From Escherichia coli (GTDB taxonomy: Bacteria; Pseudomonadota; Gammaproteobacteria; Enterobacterales; Enterobacteriaceae): DNA of 64,000 nucleotides. This document shows, piece by piece, positions 32,745 through 40,011 of the stretch. The translations under genes and the position numbers were made by a program. The stretch lies in the NCBI RefSeq assembly GCF_044324875.1, contig NZ_CP172185.1. One strand, given 5' to 3'. The stretch's first letter is position 1. Each line of letters begins with the position of its first letter. The notes under the pieces were generated by a model, which made no database searches, was not told the origin of the DNA, and worked only from the letters and a program-made list of their open reading frames with translations.

Positions 32745-33413
32745 TTATTTGCTTGCTAACTCGCGGATAAGGTCTGCCATTGAGTCAATAGATTTAATAC
32801 TCTTGGTGTAGATCAGGTATTTACCATTGACGACATACGCCGGAACGCCCTGGATTTTTGCAACTTCATAAGAGGCTTTCCATTTTTCCAGTGTTTCTTG
32901 AACCGCTGGTTCTTTCAGTGCCGCTTCAAAATCCGCCTGACTCATACCTGCGGCATCCAGACCGGTTTTGATAAAAGCAGCCGGATCTTTACCATCAGAC
33001 CAGCGTTCTTTTTTGTCATGATAAGCCGCGTAATAAGCAAACTTGGCTTTCTTAAACTGAGAGTTAGCATCAAATAAGGAAATGCCTGCTGCTTTATCTT
33101 TATTGATCAAGACCGCAAAGACTTCGCTTGCTTGTTTGCCGTATTCACCTTTTGTTTCCAGATGGAATGGAGTAAAAGCAACGATATCTTTCACTTTTTC
33201 CGATACCGGACCGGTAACCGCTTTGTCGTACTTGTAACAGAACGGGCAGGCGTAGCTAAATACCTTAATCAGCGTTTTGTCGGCATTCGGAATAGGTTTT
33301 TCCAGAACCATGTAATCCGTGCCTTCGGTAAATGCAGAAGCGGTAAATGAAACAGCCAAAGCTGCGGTAAGCAGTATGGTTTTAAATAGTGATGAGATCC
33401 CTAATTTCGACAT
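32745..33413 (-). CDS. dsbL: Periplasmic thiol:disulfide oxidoreductase, DsbA paralogue
   Basis: 222-aa ORF with signal peptide and the thioredoxin-fold active site CPFC. Confidence 0.85.
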
Positions 33414-33430
33414 TTTTATTCCCTTCTTAA

Positions 33431-35227
33431 TTATTTGAACATCTGTTGTGGACGGACTAACAGTGCACGATAGTGAGTCTGATTGGGTTTATCTGACAGC
33501 ACGTCGATTTCCACTTTCACTTCTTTGGTTTTGTAATCGATTTCGTTCAACTTACCGACGGTTGGCTGCCCGACATCGAACAAATGAATAGAACCACCGA
33601 AGCCAAACATGGTGTTACGGTCGGCTTGATATTCAATGATGGAGGTAATCGGGCTATAGAAATCGTAGCCACGTTCTTTACCGTATTCCCACACTTGCTG
33701 AACGGTGCCTTTCTTCTCATCAATCTTATATTCCACAAAGCGGGAGTATTTCATGGTTGGTAAGGCAGGTTGTTCCAGATGACGCCCATCGCCATTATCA
33801 AAAATGGTGAGCGTTCCTTTGCTGGAAATCCAGGCGGTATGCTGGGTGTAGGTAAAGTCGAAGTCTGAGTTTTCGCACAGGCCATTTTCGTTACAGGTAA
33901 TTGGCTTCCCGTTAGCATCAACCGGTTTCAGCAGCTTGCTGGCCAGCGGTTTTTCCCAACCTTTAGAGGGCGCAAGGATCCATTTCACTTGCTTATCACG
34001 ACCAATTTTCACAACACCCTGGTGGCGAGAGGAGAGGATGATTGAGTCATCTTTTGCGTCATAGGCGATTGAGTTAACGTGCGCCCAGTTACGACCTGGC
34101 CCTACACCCAGCGCGTCGCCGAACGGTGTATCTGGTTCCAGTTTTGCCTGTTGTCCTGCATGGGCAAGGTCAACGTTAACGCAAACTGCACCTGCATCCA
34201 GCGCGCCGAGCAGTGCATCGCGTTTCGGATCGAGGATCTTGGTCAGATCCCATACATCGACAACGCGACCAGATTTATCGACTTCGAGGATATGGTCACG
34301 AATGGTGGTGACGTGTACGCCGTCATCGCGACGGTAATTGCTCTTACCTACGCGCAACAATACTGTGCCATTAGGCGTCTCAATGGACTCATGAGTGGCG
34401 TCAGCAAATCCGCGCGGTAGTTTGTGATCTTCGAGCACCTGCCCCATCATGTCGAACTCGTACCAGTGCTGACCTTGTACAGCGGTAAAGGTGCCGCGTG
34501 GTGTTTCGCGGATACCCATCAGATAACCACGCTTGTTGATATCGCGGTCACGACCATCGTAGAAGGTGTTTTGATCCAACCACCAGCGGTATTCGCCTTC
34601 GGTATCGACGATAAAGGTGAATGGCGCGATATCAAAAGGGAGTGCGCCAGTTGCCGGACCCGCATCAAGGATACCGGCATTTTTATCTTTCTCACCATGC
34701 CAGTGGAGATCGGAACCTTGGGCGGTAAAGGTGTGGGTATTAACCAGATAGAGGCGATCTTCAAAACCCGGTGCGACTTTAATAACTTTGGTCTGTTGTA
34801 AATCGGAGATAGAGCGGTTATCCATGTAATTATTGACGATGGCCGAAGTGTGCACCACATAATCATCTTTCATGACCTTGCCGTTTTCTTTCCACTCAAC
34901 GGTCACTTTGTTAGCAAATTTCTGATAAAGACCAAAAATCGGTACACCATCATAAGTTTTTAGTGATTCCTGACCCACGGGATAGCTGATTTCTACGCCT
35001 TTTTCGCCCTTCCCATGGACGGTAACTTTGACATCAGAAATGACATGGCTATCTAAGTCAACCAAAGCGGTCAGTGGTGCATTGCCGTAGGGATCGACAA
35101 TGACCGCACCCAGTTGCCCGGCAGGTGGTGCGGGTTTAAAACCTGCTGCCATCACCCCCGGTGCTGACAAACCCAGAGTTATCGCCACAGCTCCGGCTAC
35201 CAGAGTTTTTCTATATTTATCAAACAT
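33431..35227 (-). CDS. assT: Periplasmic arylsulfate sulfotransferase
   Basis: 598-aa ORF with signal peptide and beta-propeller-like arylsulfotransferase sequence; first gene of the assT-dsbL-dsbI block. Confidence 0.88.
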   Translation of the reverse strand: MFDKYRKTLVAGAVAITLGLSAPGVMAAGFKPAPPAGQLGAVIVDPYGNAPLTALVDLDSHVISDVKVTVHGKGEKGVEISYPVGQESLKTYDGVPIFGLYQKFANKVTVEWKENGKVMKDDYVVHTSAIVNNYMDNRSISDLQQTKVIKVAPGFEDRLYLVNTHTFTAQGSDLHWHGEKDKNAGILDAGPATGALPFDIAPFTFIVDTEGEYRWWLDQNTFYDGRDRDINKRGYLMGIRETPRGTFTAVQGQHWYEFDMMGQVLEDHKLPRGFADATHESIETPNGTVLLRVGKSNYRRDDGVHVTTIRDHILEVDKSGRVVDVWDLTKILDPKRDALLGALDAGAVCVNVDLAHAGQQAKLEPDTPFGDALGVGPGRNWAHVNSIAYDAKDDSIILSSRHQGVVKIGRDKQVKWILAPSKGWEKPLASKLLKPVDANGKPITCNENGLCENSDFDFTYTQHTAWISSKGTLTIFDNGDGRHLEQPALPTMKYSRFVEYKIDEKKGTVQQVWEYGKERGYDFYSPITSIIEYQADRNTMFGFGGSIHLFDVGQPTVGKLNEIDYKTKEVKVEIDVLSDKPNQTHYRALLVRPQQMFK

Positions 35228-35677
35228 GGATATATCTCCTTATATAACGCAAATATATAATAATGATGAATATCGACTGTTGAGGTGGTGCTAATAAATT
35301 TGTTTTGTGAATTAAAATGTATTAATAATAATCGTTATGAATATTTTTACTGGTTTTAGATTTTTTGTATTTCTCTGTAACAAATATTTTCTTTTGGTCG
35401 ATACTAGGTGGGCAATATATCAATAACAATATTCAATATTGTGTAGTGTGATCCCAGCGACATTGTTTTTTAATTATTAAATCTATTTTTGATGCGGTGT
35501 TTGATATAAATAAACTTATAAAACAATAGGTTACAAAGTGATTTTATTGATTAATTTAATTACAGTATCGCTTACATATGACGATTTAATATTAAATTAG
35601 GAATTAATGTTAAATAAAAGTGATGGATGTGATTGATTATATATAGATGGGGGTGATGATTTGCGAAGTATAATAAA

Positions 35678-35698
35678 TTGCCCCGGTAAACGGGGCAA
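35678..35698 (-). terminator. Rho-independent terminator after ygiC
   Basis: TTGCCCCG-GTAAA-CGGGGCAA hairpin with a U-rich tract on the minus strand. Confidence 0.6.
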
Positions 35699-35710
35699 TA
35701 TTGAACAGTA

Positions 35711-36871
35711 TTACTCAACAAAAATATGCGGATAAAACCGAGACATATCCTGGGTGATCAACGCACGGTCTTCACGAATGCCAATTCCGGCAGGTTGATC
35801 GTTCACCAGCCAGCTACCAATCAGCATATAGCTGTCGCCGAATTTCGGTAACGGGTGGAATTGCTGAACAATCATCCCTTCTTCGCCATACGGACCTTCC
35901 GCTGCTTCAATGGTTTTGCCGTTCTCAATGATCGACACGTTTGCGCCTTCACGGGAGAAGAGCGGTTTAACCACATATTTTTCCATTTGCGGATGATCAT
36001 CTTCCGCAAAATAAGCGGGCAGCAGGTTCGGGTGATTCGGGAACATCTCCCACAACAGCGGTAGAAGCGCTTTGTTGGAGATAATGCTCTTCCACGCCGG
36101 TTCCAGCCAGCGTACGCCTGCATCCTCCAGCTTGGTGGAGAACATCTCACGCAGCATAAATTCCCACGGATACAGCTTGAACAGGTTAGAAATCACCTGA
36201 TCTTGTAAATCCGTGAACTGACCTTTTTCGCCTAAACCGATATCGTCGATGTAGAGGAATTCAGTAGCGATTTCAGCTTCTGTCGCGCAGTCCTGCAAAT
36301 ACTGGATGGTTCCGCGATCTTCCACCGTGTCGCGACAGCAGGTGAGATGCAGCAACTGGAAGCCATACTGTTCACGCAACTCGACAAAGCGATCGATTAG
36401 CTTTTCTTGCAGACTGTTAAACTGGTCGCTGCCTTCCGGCAGGTTACCGGCGTTAAGCTGATCTTCCAGCCAGATCCACTGAAAGAATGCGGCTTCATAC
36501 AGTGACGTTGGCGTATCGGCGTTATTTTCCAGAAGTTTAGGTTCGCCAGTACCATCCCACGCCAGATCAAGACGCGAATAAAGCGATGGCTGGTGAGTCA
36601 GCCATGACTGGCGCACAAAACTCCAGGTGTGTTTTGGAATGCGGAATTTGGTCATCAGCTCATCGCTGGCGATCACTTTTTCAACCACTTTCAGGCACAT
36701 CTGGTGCAGTTCGGCGGTGACTTCTTCCAGCTTTTCAACCTGGGCGAGGGTCAACTTGTAGTAAGCATCTTCACACCAGTACGGTTCGCCGTACATGGTG
36801 TGAAAATTGAAACCGTATTCGTGGGCTTTTTCGCGCCAGTCCGGGCGCTCGGTAATACTGACTCTTTCCAT
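35711..36871 (-). CDS. ygiC: ATP-grasp enzyme related to glutathionylspermidine synthetase
   Basis: 386-aa ORF with GspS-like synthetase-domain similarity; last gene of the tolC-ygiB-ygiC string. Confidence 0.9.
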
Positions 36872-36876
36872 CGGTA

Positions 36877-37548
36877 TCAGCCACCCATTGAACGAGAAGA
36901 GGTGCCGGTTGCGCTACGCTGCATAGTGCTTTGTTTGGCAACAGATTCACCAAAACCGCCACGAGTAACGGTGGTGGTGGTTGCCGGTTTTGGTGCCATT
37001 GCCGTCTTCGGTACGGTCATGGTGCGGCCTGGCTGGGCTGCGCCATAGTTTTTACCGGTCGCGTCGGTATATTTACCGTAAGCCGGGCTGGCCGGGTTTT
37101 TCGAGGAGAACAGCGGCTGCTGTGCAAATCCCGCGCCGCCGCCCATCAGACGACCCATCATGTAACCGGCCATCAGCGGCATCCAGAAACTCCCGCTGGA
37201 TTGCTGGGCCTGCGCCTGGTTTTCTGGTGCCATGCCAGCCTGGGCTGGTGCCTGCTGGCACTGACCTTCACCAAATTCAGCAACACAGTCTTCACGGGTG
37301 GCGTATTTCGGCGCAGTACGTTCGGCTTCTTTCAGCGCATTGTTGTACGCGGTGGTACATTCGGCGCTTTTGCCTGGGTTTGCAGCTGAACAGTCGTCAG
37401 CATTTTGATAGAGAGACACTGTTTCATCACTCTTTTCACAGCCAGCCAGCATAAAAACAGTGGCAACCGCGAGAGCGACTGGTGTCAGATGGCGTGCGCT
37501 CCAGTTTTTGCGGAACGATGCGTGGCGTATGGATTTTGTCCGTTTCAT
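36877..37548 (-). CDS. ygiB: DUF1190 lipoprotein
   Basis: 223-aa protein from the ATG at 37548 ([12 protein letters not shown]...) with a lipobox-like LAGC; the track ORF extends 11 codons further upstream. Confidence 0.85.
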
Positions 37549-37669
37549 TTTTGTCTTCCGGGACCAGTGGTAAATACCCATCAGAATAGAGGATGGCTGG
37601 TCGAAATTGAAGCGAGAAGGGGGAAGAATGCGGCAGATAACCCGTATCTTTACGTTGCCTTACGTTTAG

Positions 37670-37689
37670 ACGGGGCCGAAGCCCCGTCG
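37670..37689 (-). terminator. Hairpin between tolC and ygiB (probable partial terminator)
   Basis: GACGGGGC-TTCG-GCCCCGTC perfect stem immediately after the tolC stop. Confidence 0.45.
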
Positions 37690-37695
37690 TAGTCA

Positions 37696-39177
37696 TCAGT
37701 TACGGAAAGGGTTATGACCGTTACTGGTGGTAGTGCGTGCGGATGTTTGCTGAACGACGGGTGCCGGGCTATCAGGCGCATAACCATCAGCAATAGCATT
37801 CTGTTCCGGCGTTTGCGGGGCAACGTTTTCCGGATTAGTGGAAACCGGTTTGCTCAGCGCATTGTTCAGTGCCAGCAGATCCTGCTCGTTCAACGTACCC
37901 AGGGCTGACTTAATATTCAGCTGATTAATCAGGTAGTTATAACGCGCATTCGCCAGCTCTTGCTTGGCGTTGTACAGCGTGGTGGTCGCATCCAACACAT
38001 CAACAATGGTACGCGTACCGACCGAGTAGCCCGCTTCCATCGCATCTAATGAGCTTTGAGCGGAAACTACGGCTTGTTTGTAGGCGTTAATGCTACTGAT
38101 AGAAGCATTAATGTTGTTGAAGGAGGAACGTACGGTTTGCACGACGCTACGATGGGCGCTTTCCAGTTGCTCACTGGCACCAACAAAGTTGTACTGGGCC
38201 TGTTTCACCTGCGAGTTAACCATTCCGCCCTGATAAATCGGCAGCGAGAAGCTCAGGCCAACTTTGTTCTGGCCCATATTGCTATCGTCATACTGGGTAC
38301 CAGCGGCACCTCGGGTTTTCGAACCGCTATATGAGGTGTCAGAAATCCCGGTAGAAGCCGTTAAATCCAGAGTCGGTAAGTGACCATCCTGCGCCTGGCG
38401 AATTTGCTCGCGCGCCAGGTCCTGGCTCAAGCGCGCCTGTAACAACGACAGGTTGCGTTTTTCGGCTTCTTTCAGCAGCGCGTTAACCGGCTGTGGTTTG
38501 TCGGTTTTAAAGTTTTCGACATTCAGCGCCGCCAGTTCCGGATAGTAGTTACCGGTGATCTGGCGCAGCTGCTCTACCGCGTTATCAAGGTTATTACGTG
38601 CGGTCACTTCGTTCGCCAGCACGGTATCGTACTGTGCGCGGGCGTTCTGCACGTCAGTGATCGCTACCAGGCCCACGTTAAAACGTTGGGTGGTTTGATC
38701 TAATTGACGGTAGATCGCTTCTTTTTGCGCCTGTGTATAGGAAAGAACGTCAATAGCATTCAACACGTTGAAATAAGCGGTCGCGGTGTTGAGGATCAAG
38801 GTTTGTTGATCGGTCTGATACGTGACGTCCTGAATCCCAGCTGCTTTTTCCTGCAGCGTTAACGCACGCCATTTCGACATATCAAAAATGGATTGAGTTA
38901 ACTGCAGGGACGCACTGGTCGCGTTAGAGTTGATGCCGTTCGCGTCGCGGTAGCCGTTGCTATAGGTGTAATCTGCACCTAAACCTAGCTGTGGCAGTAA
39001 TGGACTGCGCGCTTCATTAATTTTTTCAAAGGCAGCATCACGATCGGCGGCAGACTTACGCAATTCCGGGTTACTAAGGCGTGCTTGCTGATAAACTTGC
39101 ATCAGGTTCTCGGCCTGGCTCAACGAACTGAACCCAGAGAGGCTCAGGCCGATAAGAATGGGGAGCAATTTCTTCAT
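37696..39177 (-). CDS. tolC: Outer-membrane efflux channel TolC
   Basis: 493-aa protein from the ATG at 39177 (MKKLLPILIGLSLSGFSSLSQA signal peptide); the track ORF has 13 extra upstream codons. Confidence 0.97.
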   Translation of the reverse strand: MKKLLPILIGLSLSGFSSLSQAENLMQVYQQARLSNPELRKSAADRDAAFEKINEARSPLLPQLGLGADYTYSNGYRDANGINSNATSASLQLTQSIFDMSKWRALTLQEKAAGIQDVTYQTDQQTLILNTATAYFNVLNAIDVLSYTQAQKEAIYRQLDQTTQRFNVGLVAITDVQNARAQYDTVLANEVTARNNLDNAVEQLRQITGNYYPELAALNVENFKTDKPQPVNALLKEAEKRNLSLLQARLSQDLAREQIRQAQDGHLPTLDLTASTGISDTSYSGSKTRGAAGTQYDDSNMGQNKVGLSFSLPIYQGGMVNSQVKQAQYNFVGASEQLESAHRSVVQTVRSSFNNINASISSINAYKQAVVSAQSSLDAMEAGYSVGTRTIVDVLDATTTLYNAKQELANARYNYLINQLNIKSALGTLNEQDLLALNNALSKPVSTNPENVAPQTPEQNAIADGYAPDSPAPVVQQTSARTTTSNGHNPFRN

Positions 39178-39249
39178 TTGCATTCCTTGTGGTGAAGCAG
39201 TATTTAGCGCGATCAAACTGTAAAATTATTGCGGATTCTAGCAGAAGCC

Positions 39250-39282
39250 GCTACCGCAAAAGGTTGGCGTTACGTGCCATAG
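39250..39282 (-). promoter_or_regulatory. mar/sox/rob box in the tolC promoter
   Basis: Minus-strand ATGGCACGTAACGCCAACCTTTTGCGGTAGCGG matches the tolC marbox as I recall it, about 80-110 bp upstream of the tolC ATG. Confidence 0.6.
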
Positions 39283-39381
39283 GGCGTTAATGTGCCTCAA
39301 TTTAACACATGACTGCTCAAACGGCAGTCAAACGTCGCTGAAATTCACATTTAATTCACTATTAGTGCCAGGACATTAACA

Positions 39382-40011
39382 ATGCTTAAGCCAGACAACC
39401 TGCCCGTTACATTTGGCAAAAACGATGTAGAAATTATTGCACGAGAAACACTTTATCGCGGCTTTTTTTCATTAGATCTTTATAGATTTCGTCATCGTCT
39501 ATTCAACGGGCAAATGAGTCATGAGGTACGGCGGGAAATTTTTGAGCGCGGTCACGCCGCAGTCTTGCTACCCTTTGACCCAGTGCGTGATGAAGTTGTG
39601 CTGATTGAGCAGATTCGGATTGCCGCGTACGACACCAGCGAAACCCCCTGGCTACTGGAGATGGTTGCCGGGATGATTGAAGAGGGTGAAAGTGTGGAAG
39701 ATGTTGCCCGTCGCGAAGCGATTGAAGAGGCGGGACTGATAGTCAAACGGACCAAACCGGTGTTAAGTTTCCTGGCAAGCCCGGGGGGCACCAGTGAGCG
39801 TTCGTCAATTATGGTGGGCGAAGTGGACGCCACGACCGCAAGCGGTATTCACGGTCTGGCTGATGAAAACGAAGATATTCGCGTTCATGTGGTAAGCCGG
39901 GAACAGGCATACCAGTGGGTAGAAGAGGGGAAAATCGACAACGCAGCGTCGGTCATCGCTTTGCAATGGCTGCAGCTGCATCATCAAGCGTTAAAAAATG
40001 AGTGGGCATAA
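39382..40011 (+). CDS. nudF: ADP-ribose pyrophosphatase (Nudix)
   Basis: 209-aa ORF with the Nudix box [22 protein letters not shown]. Confidence 0.93.

Follow-up and report, generated by a model that had tools for sequence, protein, structure and literature searches.

The ygiB and ygiC genes of Escherichia coli, which lie downstream from tolC in the stretch of DNA analysed here (64,000 nucleotides of contig NZ_CP172185.1, hereafter the window), encode a DUF1190 lipoprotein and an ATP-grasp peptide--spermidine ligase. Our analysis indicates that the known tolC-ygiB-ygiC locus contains a tightly coupled ygiBC module with two transcriptional inputs, a Cpx-type promoter of its own and read-through from tolC, a reading to which we assign a probability of about 0.85. 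In the mechanism proposed, one input would come from the tolC promoters, by read-through over a stable hairpin, devoid of a U-tract in E. coli, to an extent varying by lineage. The other would come from a promoter located between this hairpin and ygiB (CpxR-type box, -35 TTCAAT, 17 nt, -10 TATTCT), and would subject the gene pair to envelope-stress (Cpx) control separately from tolC. The features on which this reading is based are listed below, in the direction of transcription.

37699..39183, minus strand: tolC, outer-membrane channel (Pfam OEP, E 5.4e-62; RefSeq annotation)
37669..37688, minus strand: post-tolC hairpin GACGGGGC-TTCG-GCCCCGTC, no U-tract (energy -15.7 kcal/mol)
37649..37663, minus strand: CpxR-type direct repeat GTAAG-N5-GTAAA, GTAAGnCAACGTAAA (75/75 loci with the spacer)
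37583..37611, minus strand: putative ygiB promoter, -35 TTCAAT at 37611..37606, 17-nt spacer, -10 TATTCT at 37588..37583 (conserved block)
36877..37548 (stop included), minus strand: ygiB, DUF1190 lipoprotein (Pfam DUF1190, E 2.9e-55; NCBIfam match)
35711..36871, minus strand: ygiC, GSP_synth ATP-grasp peptide--spermidine ligase (Pfam, E 3.6e-164)

A CpxR-type box and putative promoter upstream from ygiB

The 75 loci referred to here are the Enterobacteriaceae loci including the tolC-ygiB spacer, from a set of 80 loci fetched with YgiC as the query. The direct repeat GTAAGnCAACGTAAAGAT was invariant in these loci (75/75), with the copy in the window at 37663..37649. The CpxR consensus is GTAAA-N5-GTAAA, and the ygiB repeat differs from it by one base. 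The window copy, GTAAGGCAACGTAAA at 37663..37649, was the sole match to GTAARN5GTAAA in the 64-kb window, with 0.14 matches expected by chance, and at least one match was obtained in 13 of 100 shuffles. A single match to the box is weak evidence alone, and it is conservation that carries the argument.

The box is followed, in all loci, by the conserved block GCTTCAwTTTCrACCAsyCATCCtCTATyCTGA, and the -10 element was TATCCT or TATTCT in every locus scored (65/65). Three classes of locus were distinguished by the spacing of the box and the -10 element: 37/39 nt in 9 loci, 48/50 nt in 32 and 59/60 nt in 24. These lengths, of approximately 38, 49 and 60 nt, differ by steps of one helical turn, as would be expected if an activator had to be bound on a fixed side of the helix with respect to RNA polymerase. 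The centre of the box lies at about -80 from the inferred start, near 37576, in E. coli, and at about -70 or -59 in other genera; we infer both this start and the binding of CpxR to the E. coli box. Downstream from the promoter block, a Shine-Dalgarno sequence (GGAAGA) and ATGAAACGGAC are conserved, supporting the annotated ygiB start at 37548. The quantisation of the distance between the box and the -10 element across genera (loci L001-L080) also provides a naturally occurring phasing experiment on an activator site, and an unusually clean one.

This arrangement resembles that of Cpx-regulated promoters such as those of cpxP, degP and yebE, in which a direct repeat also lies upstream from a weak sigma-70-like promoter. 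The ygiB promoter differs from these in that Cpx dependence is known, from a lux reporter, only for the orthologue from Citrobacter rodentium, whereas the site in E. coli is predicted from sequence. In C. rodentium, ygiB-lux was found to be Cpx-dependent, with tolC-lux regulated in the opposite direction, and the authors described a putative CpxR site 91 bp upstream from ygiB and concluded that this gene has its own promoter (bioRxiv 10.1101/2021.12.13.472529). In E. coli, the overproduction of BaeR increased tolC expression 1.9-fold, with no significant change for ygiA/B/C (PMC2731931). Some observations nevertheless weigh against an own Cpx-type promoter. A simple sigma-70 scan missed the ygiB promoter, which matched 7 of 12 consensus positions (threshold 9); a weak sigma-70 match is expected for an activator-dependent promoter, but it is still weak. 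In one E. coli Cpx microarray study, ygiB was not among the Cpx-regulated genes, and its sole mention was in the BaeR table (PMC2731931).

Other readings of this region were rejected. Initiation of ygiB at the upstream ATG at 37581, which would add 11 codons (37549..37581), was discarded because this ATG is not conserved, the sequence being GATGG in E. coli and GAGCA elsewhere. A sigma-E promoter reading of TCTGA was dropped, as most genera have CCTGA. The putative gene 'ygiA' (b3036), an open reading frame (ORF) of 86 amino acids (37436..37696, minus strand), was rejected on the basis of its indels and lack of frame conservation between genera, and is absent from the current K-12 annotation. 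This old ORF of the tolC-ygiABC literature overlaps the CpxR-type box and the promoter.

The post-tolC hairpin and possible read-through from tolC

The hairpin at 37688..37669 begins 8 nt past the tolC stop codon. The sequence following it, CTAAACG, contains no T-run (tail CUAAACGU, with 2 T in 8), and the hairpin was not called by the terminator scan because the U-tract is absent. A canonical Rho-independent terminator was therefore rejected at this position: the stem is present, the U-tract is not. The first-pass annotation of this DNA had described a hairpin between tolC and ygiB resembling a partial terminator, at 37670-37689; this structure was recovered, displaced by 1 nt, as a U-less hairpin that is not a full terminator. 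It may be a weak or partial terminator, or a stabiliser of the RNA 3' end, and its appearance in E. coli is that of a degenerate terminator from which the U-tract has been lost. Given the absence of the U-tract, read-through from tolC, the degree of which we infer, is plausible in E. coli. No Rfam match for a structured RNA was obtained in 35400..39500 at E values up to 1, and the folding of the whole tolC-ygiB spacer was no better than that of shuffled sequences (z = -1.25).

The tolC-ygiB spacer ranged from 64 to 217 nt in length across loci, with a value of 626 nt for one Enterobacter locus. Its half next to the tolC stop codon, comprising the 40-100 nt before the box, was unrelated from one genus to another. 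A U-less hairpin follows tolC in E. coli and most Citrobacter; in Kosakonia, Kluyvera and Phytobacter, its place is taken by a canonical terminator, with a hairpin plus T5-6; palindromes or hairpins resembling repetitive extragenic palindromic (REP) sequences are found in Salmonella and many Enterobacter. The 626-nt spacer, from Enterobacter hormaechei (L044:4066-4590), results from the insertion of about 470 nt between tolC and the CpxR-type box. Within this insert, probably a repetitive intergenic element, there is an imperfect inverted repeat of 37 nt (CCCTCACCCCAGCCCTCTCCC / GGGAGAGGGTTAGGGTGAGGGG); downstream from the insert, the box and the promoter are intact.

According to a 2025 review of TolC, which cites Dhamdhere & Zgurskaya 2010, tolC is in an operon with ygiB and ygiC (PMC11762307). 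In the simplest version of such an operon, ygiBC would have no promoter of its own and would be transcribed only as the downstream end of the tolC message, attenuated by partial termination at the hairpin. The names tolC-ygiBC and tolC-ygiABC operon used in the literature, the lack of a U-tract and the gene order kept in the Enterobacteriaceae are all consistent with this arrangement, but we consider it very improbable, because it fails to account for the promoter block and the invariant CpxR-type box that separate the hairpin from ygiB and that several genera keep despite having full hairpin-plus-T-run terminators after tolC. It is also at odds with the activity and Cpx dependence of C. rodentium ygiB-lux and the opposite behaviour of tolC-lux, with the induction by BaeR of tolC but not of ygiABC, and with the lack of a nearby tolC for distant DUF1190/GSP_synth pairs (see below).

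We thus favour a module with two inputs. A single transcript extending from tolC to ygiC would be plausible by read-through, yet there is also a conserved internal promoter, together with published differential expression. The first-pass annotation presented ygiBC as co-transcribed with tolC, and this view holds in part: the operon is a standard statement of the literature and the hairpin lacks a U-tract, but the conserved promoter and the differential expression argue against tolC as the only source of the transcript. Two findings were named there as speaking against co-transcription. One, an independent ygiBC promoter, is supported by conservation (75/75 loci), phased spacing and the C. rodentium lux data, whereas read-through, the absence of which was the other, is plausible in E. 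coli. If the two-input reading is correct, ygiBC would form a unit responding to envelope stress from a phased CpxR-type promoter of its own, and the linkage to tolC would be a positional accident in enterobacteria, which should alter the interpretation of tolC polar effects and of 'operon' annotations.

Conservation of the locus and of the ygiB-ygiC pair

Of 5426 complete E. coli genomes, 5421 contained the same 3.9-kb DNA, with 95-100% identity and annotated as tolC / ygiB / ygiC. The locus of E. coli K-12 (b3035, b3037, b3038) has the same genes, order, spacing and intergenic sequence as the window; the window YgiB is 100% identical to that of K-12, and a comparison of 360 residues of YgiC gave 99.7% identity. 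There is no essential difference between the two, this strain having assT-dsbL downstream from ygiC, behind an AT-rich spacer. The order tolC-ygiB-ygiC was kept in every enterobacterial locus with a long enough flank (80 loci fetched). In the window, 5 nt ('taccg') separate the TGA of ygiB from the ATG of ygiC, and the gap was 2 or 5 nt in all enterobacterial orthologue pairs scored (74/74), with one more locus disrupted by assembly N. The two genes had been described in the first-pass annotation as encoding a DUF1190 lipoprotein and a glutathionylspermidine-synthetase-like ATP-grasp enzyme, located 5 bp apart downstream from tolC; the Pfam matches to DUF1190 and GSP_synth agree with these identities, and the ORFs and the sequence bear out the spacing and the position. 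The locus is therefore the known E. coli tolC-ygiB-ygiC, the pair is real and conserved, and most of the finding is nothing out of the ordinary. Previous publications cover the locus, the operon claim, the enzyme fold and the in-vitro activity, and the new elements are limited to the comparative promoter evidence and the hypothesis on the DUF1190 tail presented below.

Outside the Enterobacteriaceae, we examined five distinct distant loci with an identifiable downstream gene (seven contigs, including two near-duplicate pairs), encoding DUF1190 proteins 25-38% identical to YgiB. In all of them (5/5), the DUF1190 gene was directly followed by a GSP_synth gene, with a gap of 0-21 nt, and tolC adjoined none of these five pairs, the typical neighbours of which were genes for a K+ channel and DUF350. 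The linkage of DUF1190/GSP_synth with PspA-type genes has already been noted (Ravi et al. 2024). A further distant DUF1190 gene (P0225, the product of which ends ...SVGG; L085:98-1490) is followed by a 148-amino acid ORF with no Pfam hit, rather than by GSP_synth, on a contig of only 1.5 kb, so a ligase gene may lie beyond its end. E. coli itself contains a paralogous pair, yjfM-yjfC, with a 2-nt gap, at the end of the yjfIJKLMC operon. Like ygiB-ygiC, this pair consists of a DUF1190 gene and a peptide-spermidine ligase gene, YjfC being 50% identical to YgiC, and YjfM resembles YgiB in having an RGGYG motif and a diglycine end (HWGG). Unlike ygiBC, it lies within a PspA-like / DUF2170 / DUF2491 / DUF350 operon, rather than behind tolC, and has no CpxR-type box context. 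On the basis of these comparisons, the ancient conserved unit is the ygiB-ygiC pair, and not the linkage to tolC.

The YgiC enzyme

YgiC matched GSP_synth (PF03738) with a score of 546.8 bits (cut-off 29.3), over residues 12-384 of 386. It is cytoplasmic, with no signal peptide, and differs from the chain of PDB 7UK8/7UKA at only one residue, L304I, over 386 amino acids. The AlphaFold2 (AF2) model of YgiC gave TM scores of 0.94-0.95 against 7UK8/7UKA, and an E value of 2e-29 against 2IO8. PDB structures are available for YgiC (7UK8, 7UKA) and for YjfC (7UK6, 7UK7), and the RefSeq K-12 product name for both proteins is 'peptide--spermidine ligase'. As cited in later articles, YgiC and YjfC have no glutathionylspermidine synthetase activity (Sui 2012, via PMC11762307 and PMC12506659), and peptide-spermidine ligase activity in vitro was reported for both, together with structures (Pederick 2023, via PMC11762307).

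The C-terminal domain of glutathionylspermidine synthetase (GspS) and trypanothione synthetase have the same ATP-grasp fold as YgiC (Foldseek E 1e-29, TM about 0.74) and belong to the same chemistry class, in which a carboxylate is activated and then amidated with spermidine. YgiC differs from the bifunctional synthetase/amidase GspSA in having no amidase domain and, as reported at second hand, in not using glutathione (Sui 2012, via PMC11762307 and PMC12506659). Its score against the bifunctional GspSA equivalog NF007801 was 165.9 bits, below the cut-off of 882, with a match to the C-terminal part of the profile only (386 versus 619 amino acids). The first-pass annotation considered the substrate of the ATP-grasp enzyme to be unknown, a statement that holds only for the physiological substrate, as peptide-spermidine ligation in vitro and structures have been published. 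The roles of YgiB and YgiC are still listed as a gap in TolC reviews.

Anatomy of YgiB and the DUF1190 family

YgiB scored 187.4 bits against Pfam DUF1190 (cut-off 22) and 404 bits against the NCBIfam equivalog (cut-off 223). The family alignment comprised 109 DUF1190 representatives sharing no more than 50% identity. YgiB has a canonical lipobox, LAGC, with the cysteine at position 37 (Cys37), and the family lipobox is L[SAT][GA]C, with the cysteine present in 108 of the 109 representatives. The basic n-region of the signal peptide, MKR[ST]xx[IV]xLxx[MF]RK (YgiB residues 1-14), is conserved family-wide, a degree of conservation not usually seen in signal peptides that are cleaved; this n-region could be a cytoplasmic recognition element.

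The lipobox is followed by an acidic domain, net negative in 81/81 members, in which C53, C64, C88 and C97 are invariant or nearly so. The family also has a Met/Gly-rich motif, F-M-P-x-M-A-G-[YF]-M-x-G, the Met-rich motif of YgiB corresponding to residues 121-135 (approximately 37188..37144 of the window, minus strand); we take this motif to resemble the Cu(I)-binding 'Mets' motifs. The Met motif, the four invariant cysteines, Cpx control and the slight copper sensitivity of a delta-ygiB mutant (see below) hint at a metal-related role for YgiB.

By contrast to the acidic domain, the tail is basic, with a net positive charge in 81/81 members (median of 12 K/R versus 2 D/E). It contains the RGGFG sequence, invariant in 107-109 of the 109 representatives, followed by 7-48 residues, 32% of which are serines. 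The last residue was G in 88, S in 16, A in one and T in one of the 106 representatives scored, and 86 ended in GG, usually as [W/F/M]GG. All enterobacterial orthologues of YgiB (74/74) end in RSMGG, with variation of the S/T-rich residues just before. No second transmembrane segment was detected by hydropathy in 101/101 members (highest 19-residue Kyte-Doolittle mean, 1.38), and a second transmembrane helix placing the YgiB tail in the cytoplasm was rejected on this basis, although the charge pattern would fit. The possibility that C-terminal GG occurs only with an adjacent ligase gene was also rejected, because a subfamily ending in ...SS / ...AS is ligase-paired too.

Possible relationships between YgiB and YgiC

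The two proteins might cooperate directly, YgiB being a substrate or partner of YgiC. The ligase would dock on TVT-RGGFG and amidate the carboxylate of the last residue of the tail with spermidine, in a reaction like that of GspS on the Gly carboxylate of glutathione. This reaction would take place before or during Sec export of the precursor. A terminal residue that is always tiny, after a variable spacer, in a protein encoded beside a carboxylate-amidating ligase suggests that the tail is the ligase target. This possibility was explored with AF2, using a construct (A1) in which YgiC was joined by a Gly-Ser linker of 30 residues to the final 34 residues of YgiB, the alignment also containing paired rows for 24 other loci. 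The crystal fold of YgiC was reproduced (TM 0.94 to 7UK8) and the linker had a predicted local distance difference test (pLDDT) score below 50. A 10-residue block containing RGGFG reached a pLDDT of 81, with a beta-strand at TVTR, whereas the last ten residues had values of about 33. A second construct (A2) contained YgiC, a linker, a column-shuffled copy of the tail, a second linker and the native tail, the latter on an 84-residue tether. In this construct, the shuffled tail had pLDDT values of 22-27, whereas the native block again reached 81, with the same strand, and the extreme C-terminus remained at about 30. These models support a predicted sequence-specific association of the RGGFG segment with YgiC, with the C-terminus not placed.

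The predicted ordering of this block beside YgiC, with a shuffled tail staying disordered, is consistent with YgiB as a substrate, as are the invariance of RSMGG next to variable S/T-rich residues, the near-invariance of RGGFG with a tiny last residue throughout the family, the HWGG end of YjfM, encoded 2 nt before yjfC, and the adjacency of DUF1190 and GSP_synth across distant taxa. There is a eukaryotic precedent for such a modification, in the addition of spermidine to the C-terminal diglycine of SUMO/ubiquitin (PMC12270671). The RimK/S6 and PafA/Pup systems, like SUMO/ubiquitin-spermidine, involve carboxylate-amine ligation on a flexible C-terminal tail, as proposed here for YgiB. For RimK and Pup, the genes for substrate and ligase are neighbours. 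The likeness is one of analogy only, and YgiB, unlike these substrates, is an exported lipoprotein. This is also the main objection to the hypothesis: with no second transmembrane segment (101/101 members), the mature tail would be outside the cytoplasm and YgiC inside, a topology implying that any contact between the two must precede export. Moreover, the extreme C-terminus is disordered in AF2 (pLDDT of about 30), and tails ending in ...SS / ...AS are also ligase-paired, so GG is not obligatory. We regard YgiB as a rather unlikely substrate or partner of YgiC.

Alternatively, YgiC may make a soluble peptide-polyamine conjugate, of a cell-wall or glutathione-related peptide for example. YgiB would handle this conjugate, or a metal, in the envelope, without any contact between the two proteins. 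This relationship is possible, if short of an even chance, and about equally likely as the involvement of YgiB as a substrate or partner. It would fit the reported peptide-spermidine ligase activity in vitro, as described in the TolC review (PMC11762307), and the location of YgiB and YgiC in different compartments. It would also be compatible with the four invariant cysteines and the Met-rich motif of YgiB, which has been called a 'metal-chelating lipoprotein' (Ravi et al. 2024), and with the phenotype of delta-ygiB in simulated colonic fluid, in which this mutant is sensitive to peroxide and, to a slight degree, to copper (bioRxiv 10.1101/2021.12.13.472529). However, it leaves unexplained the invariant RGGFG, the C-terminal residue that is always tiny and the ordering of the tail in AF2, with its shuffled control, and the conjugate itself is hypothetical.

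The direct relationship can be stated in a more specific form, in which YgiB/YjfM would be the physiological partner of YgiC/YjfC, with RGGFG recognised and spermidine placed on the terminal Gly carboxylate under Cpx stress; we consider this form unlikely. If true, it would provide a C-terminally polyaminated envelope lipoprotein and a bacterial system for protein C-terminal polyamination. The conserved tail and the AlphaFold signal turn the question of the in-vivo substrate of YgiC/YjfC into a cheap and readily testable one.

Other features of the region

Two further elements were located on the same strand.

37123..37139, minus strand: published intragenic sigma-54 site IS37, from chromatin immunoprecipitation sequencing (ChIP-seq), inside ygiB, GCGGCGCGGGATTTGCA (sequence from PMC4591121 located in the window)
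35677..35699, minus strand: intrinsic-terminator-like hairpin plus T-rich tail closing ygiBC (terminator scan: ATTGCCCCGTTTACCGGGGCAAT then TTATTATACT)

The IS37 site lies 258 bp upstream from ygiC and may be a third, internal input to this gene. Downstream from ygiC (window 32745..35700) are a gene for the arylsulfotransferase AssT (35227..33431) and a DsbA-like gene (33413..32745). The spacer before assT (35200..35700) has a G+C content of 26-32% and looks like an island junction.

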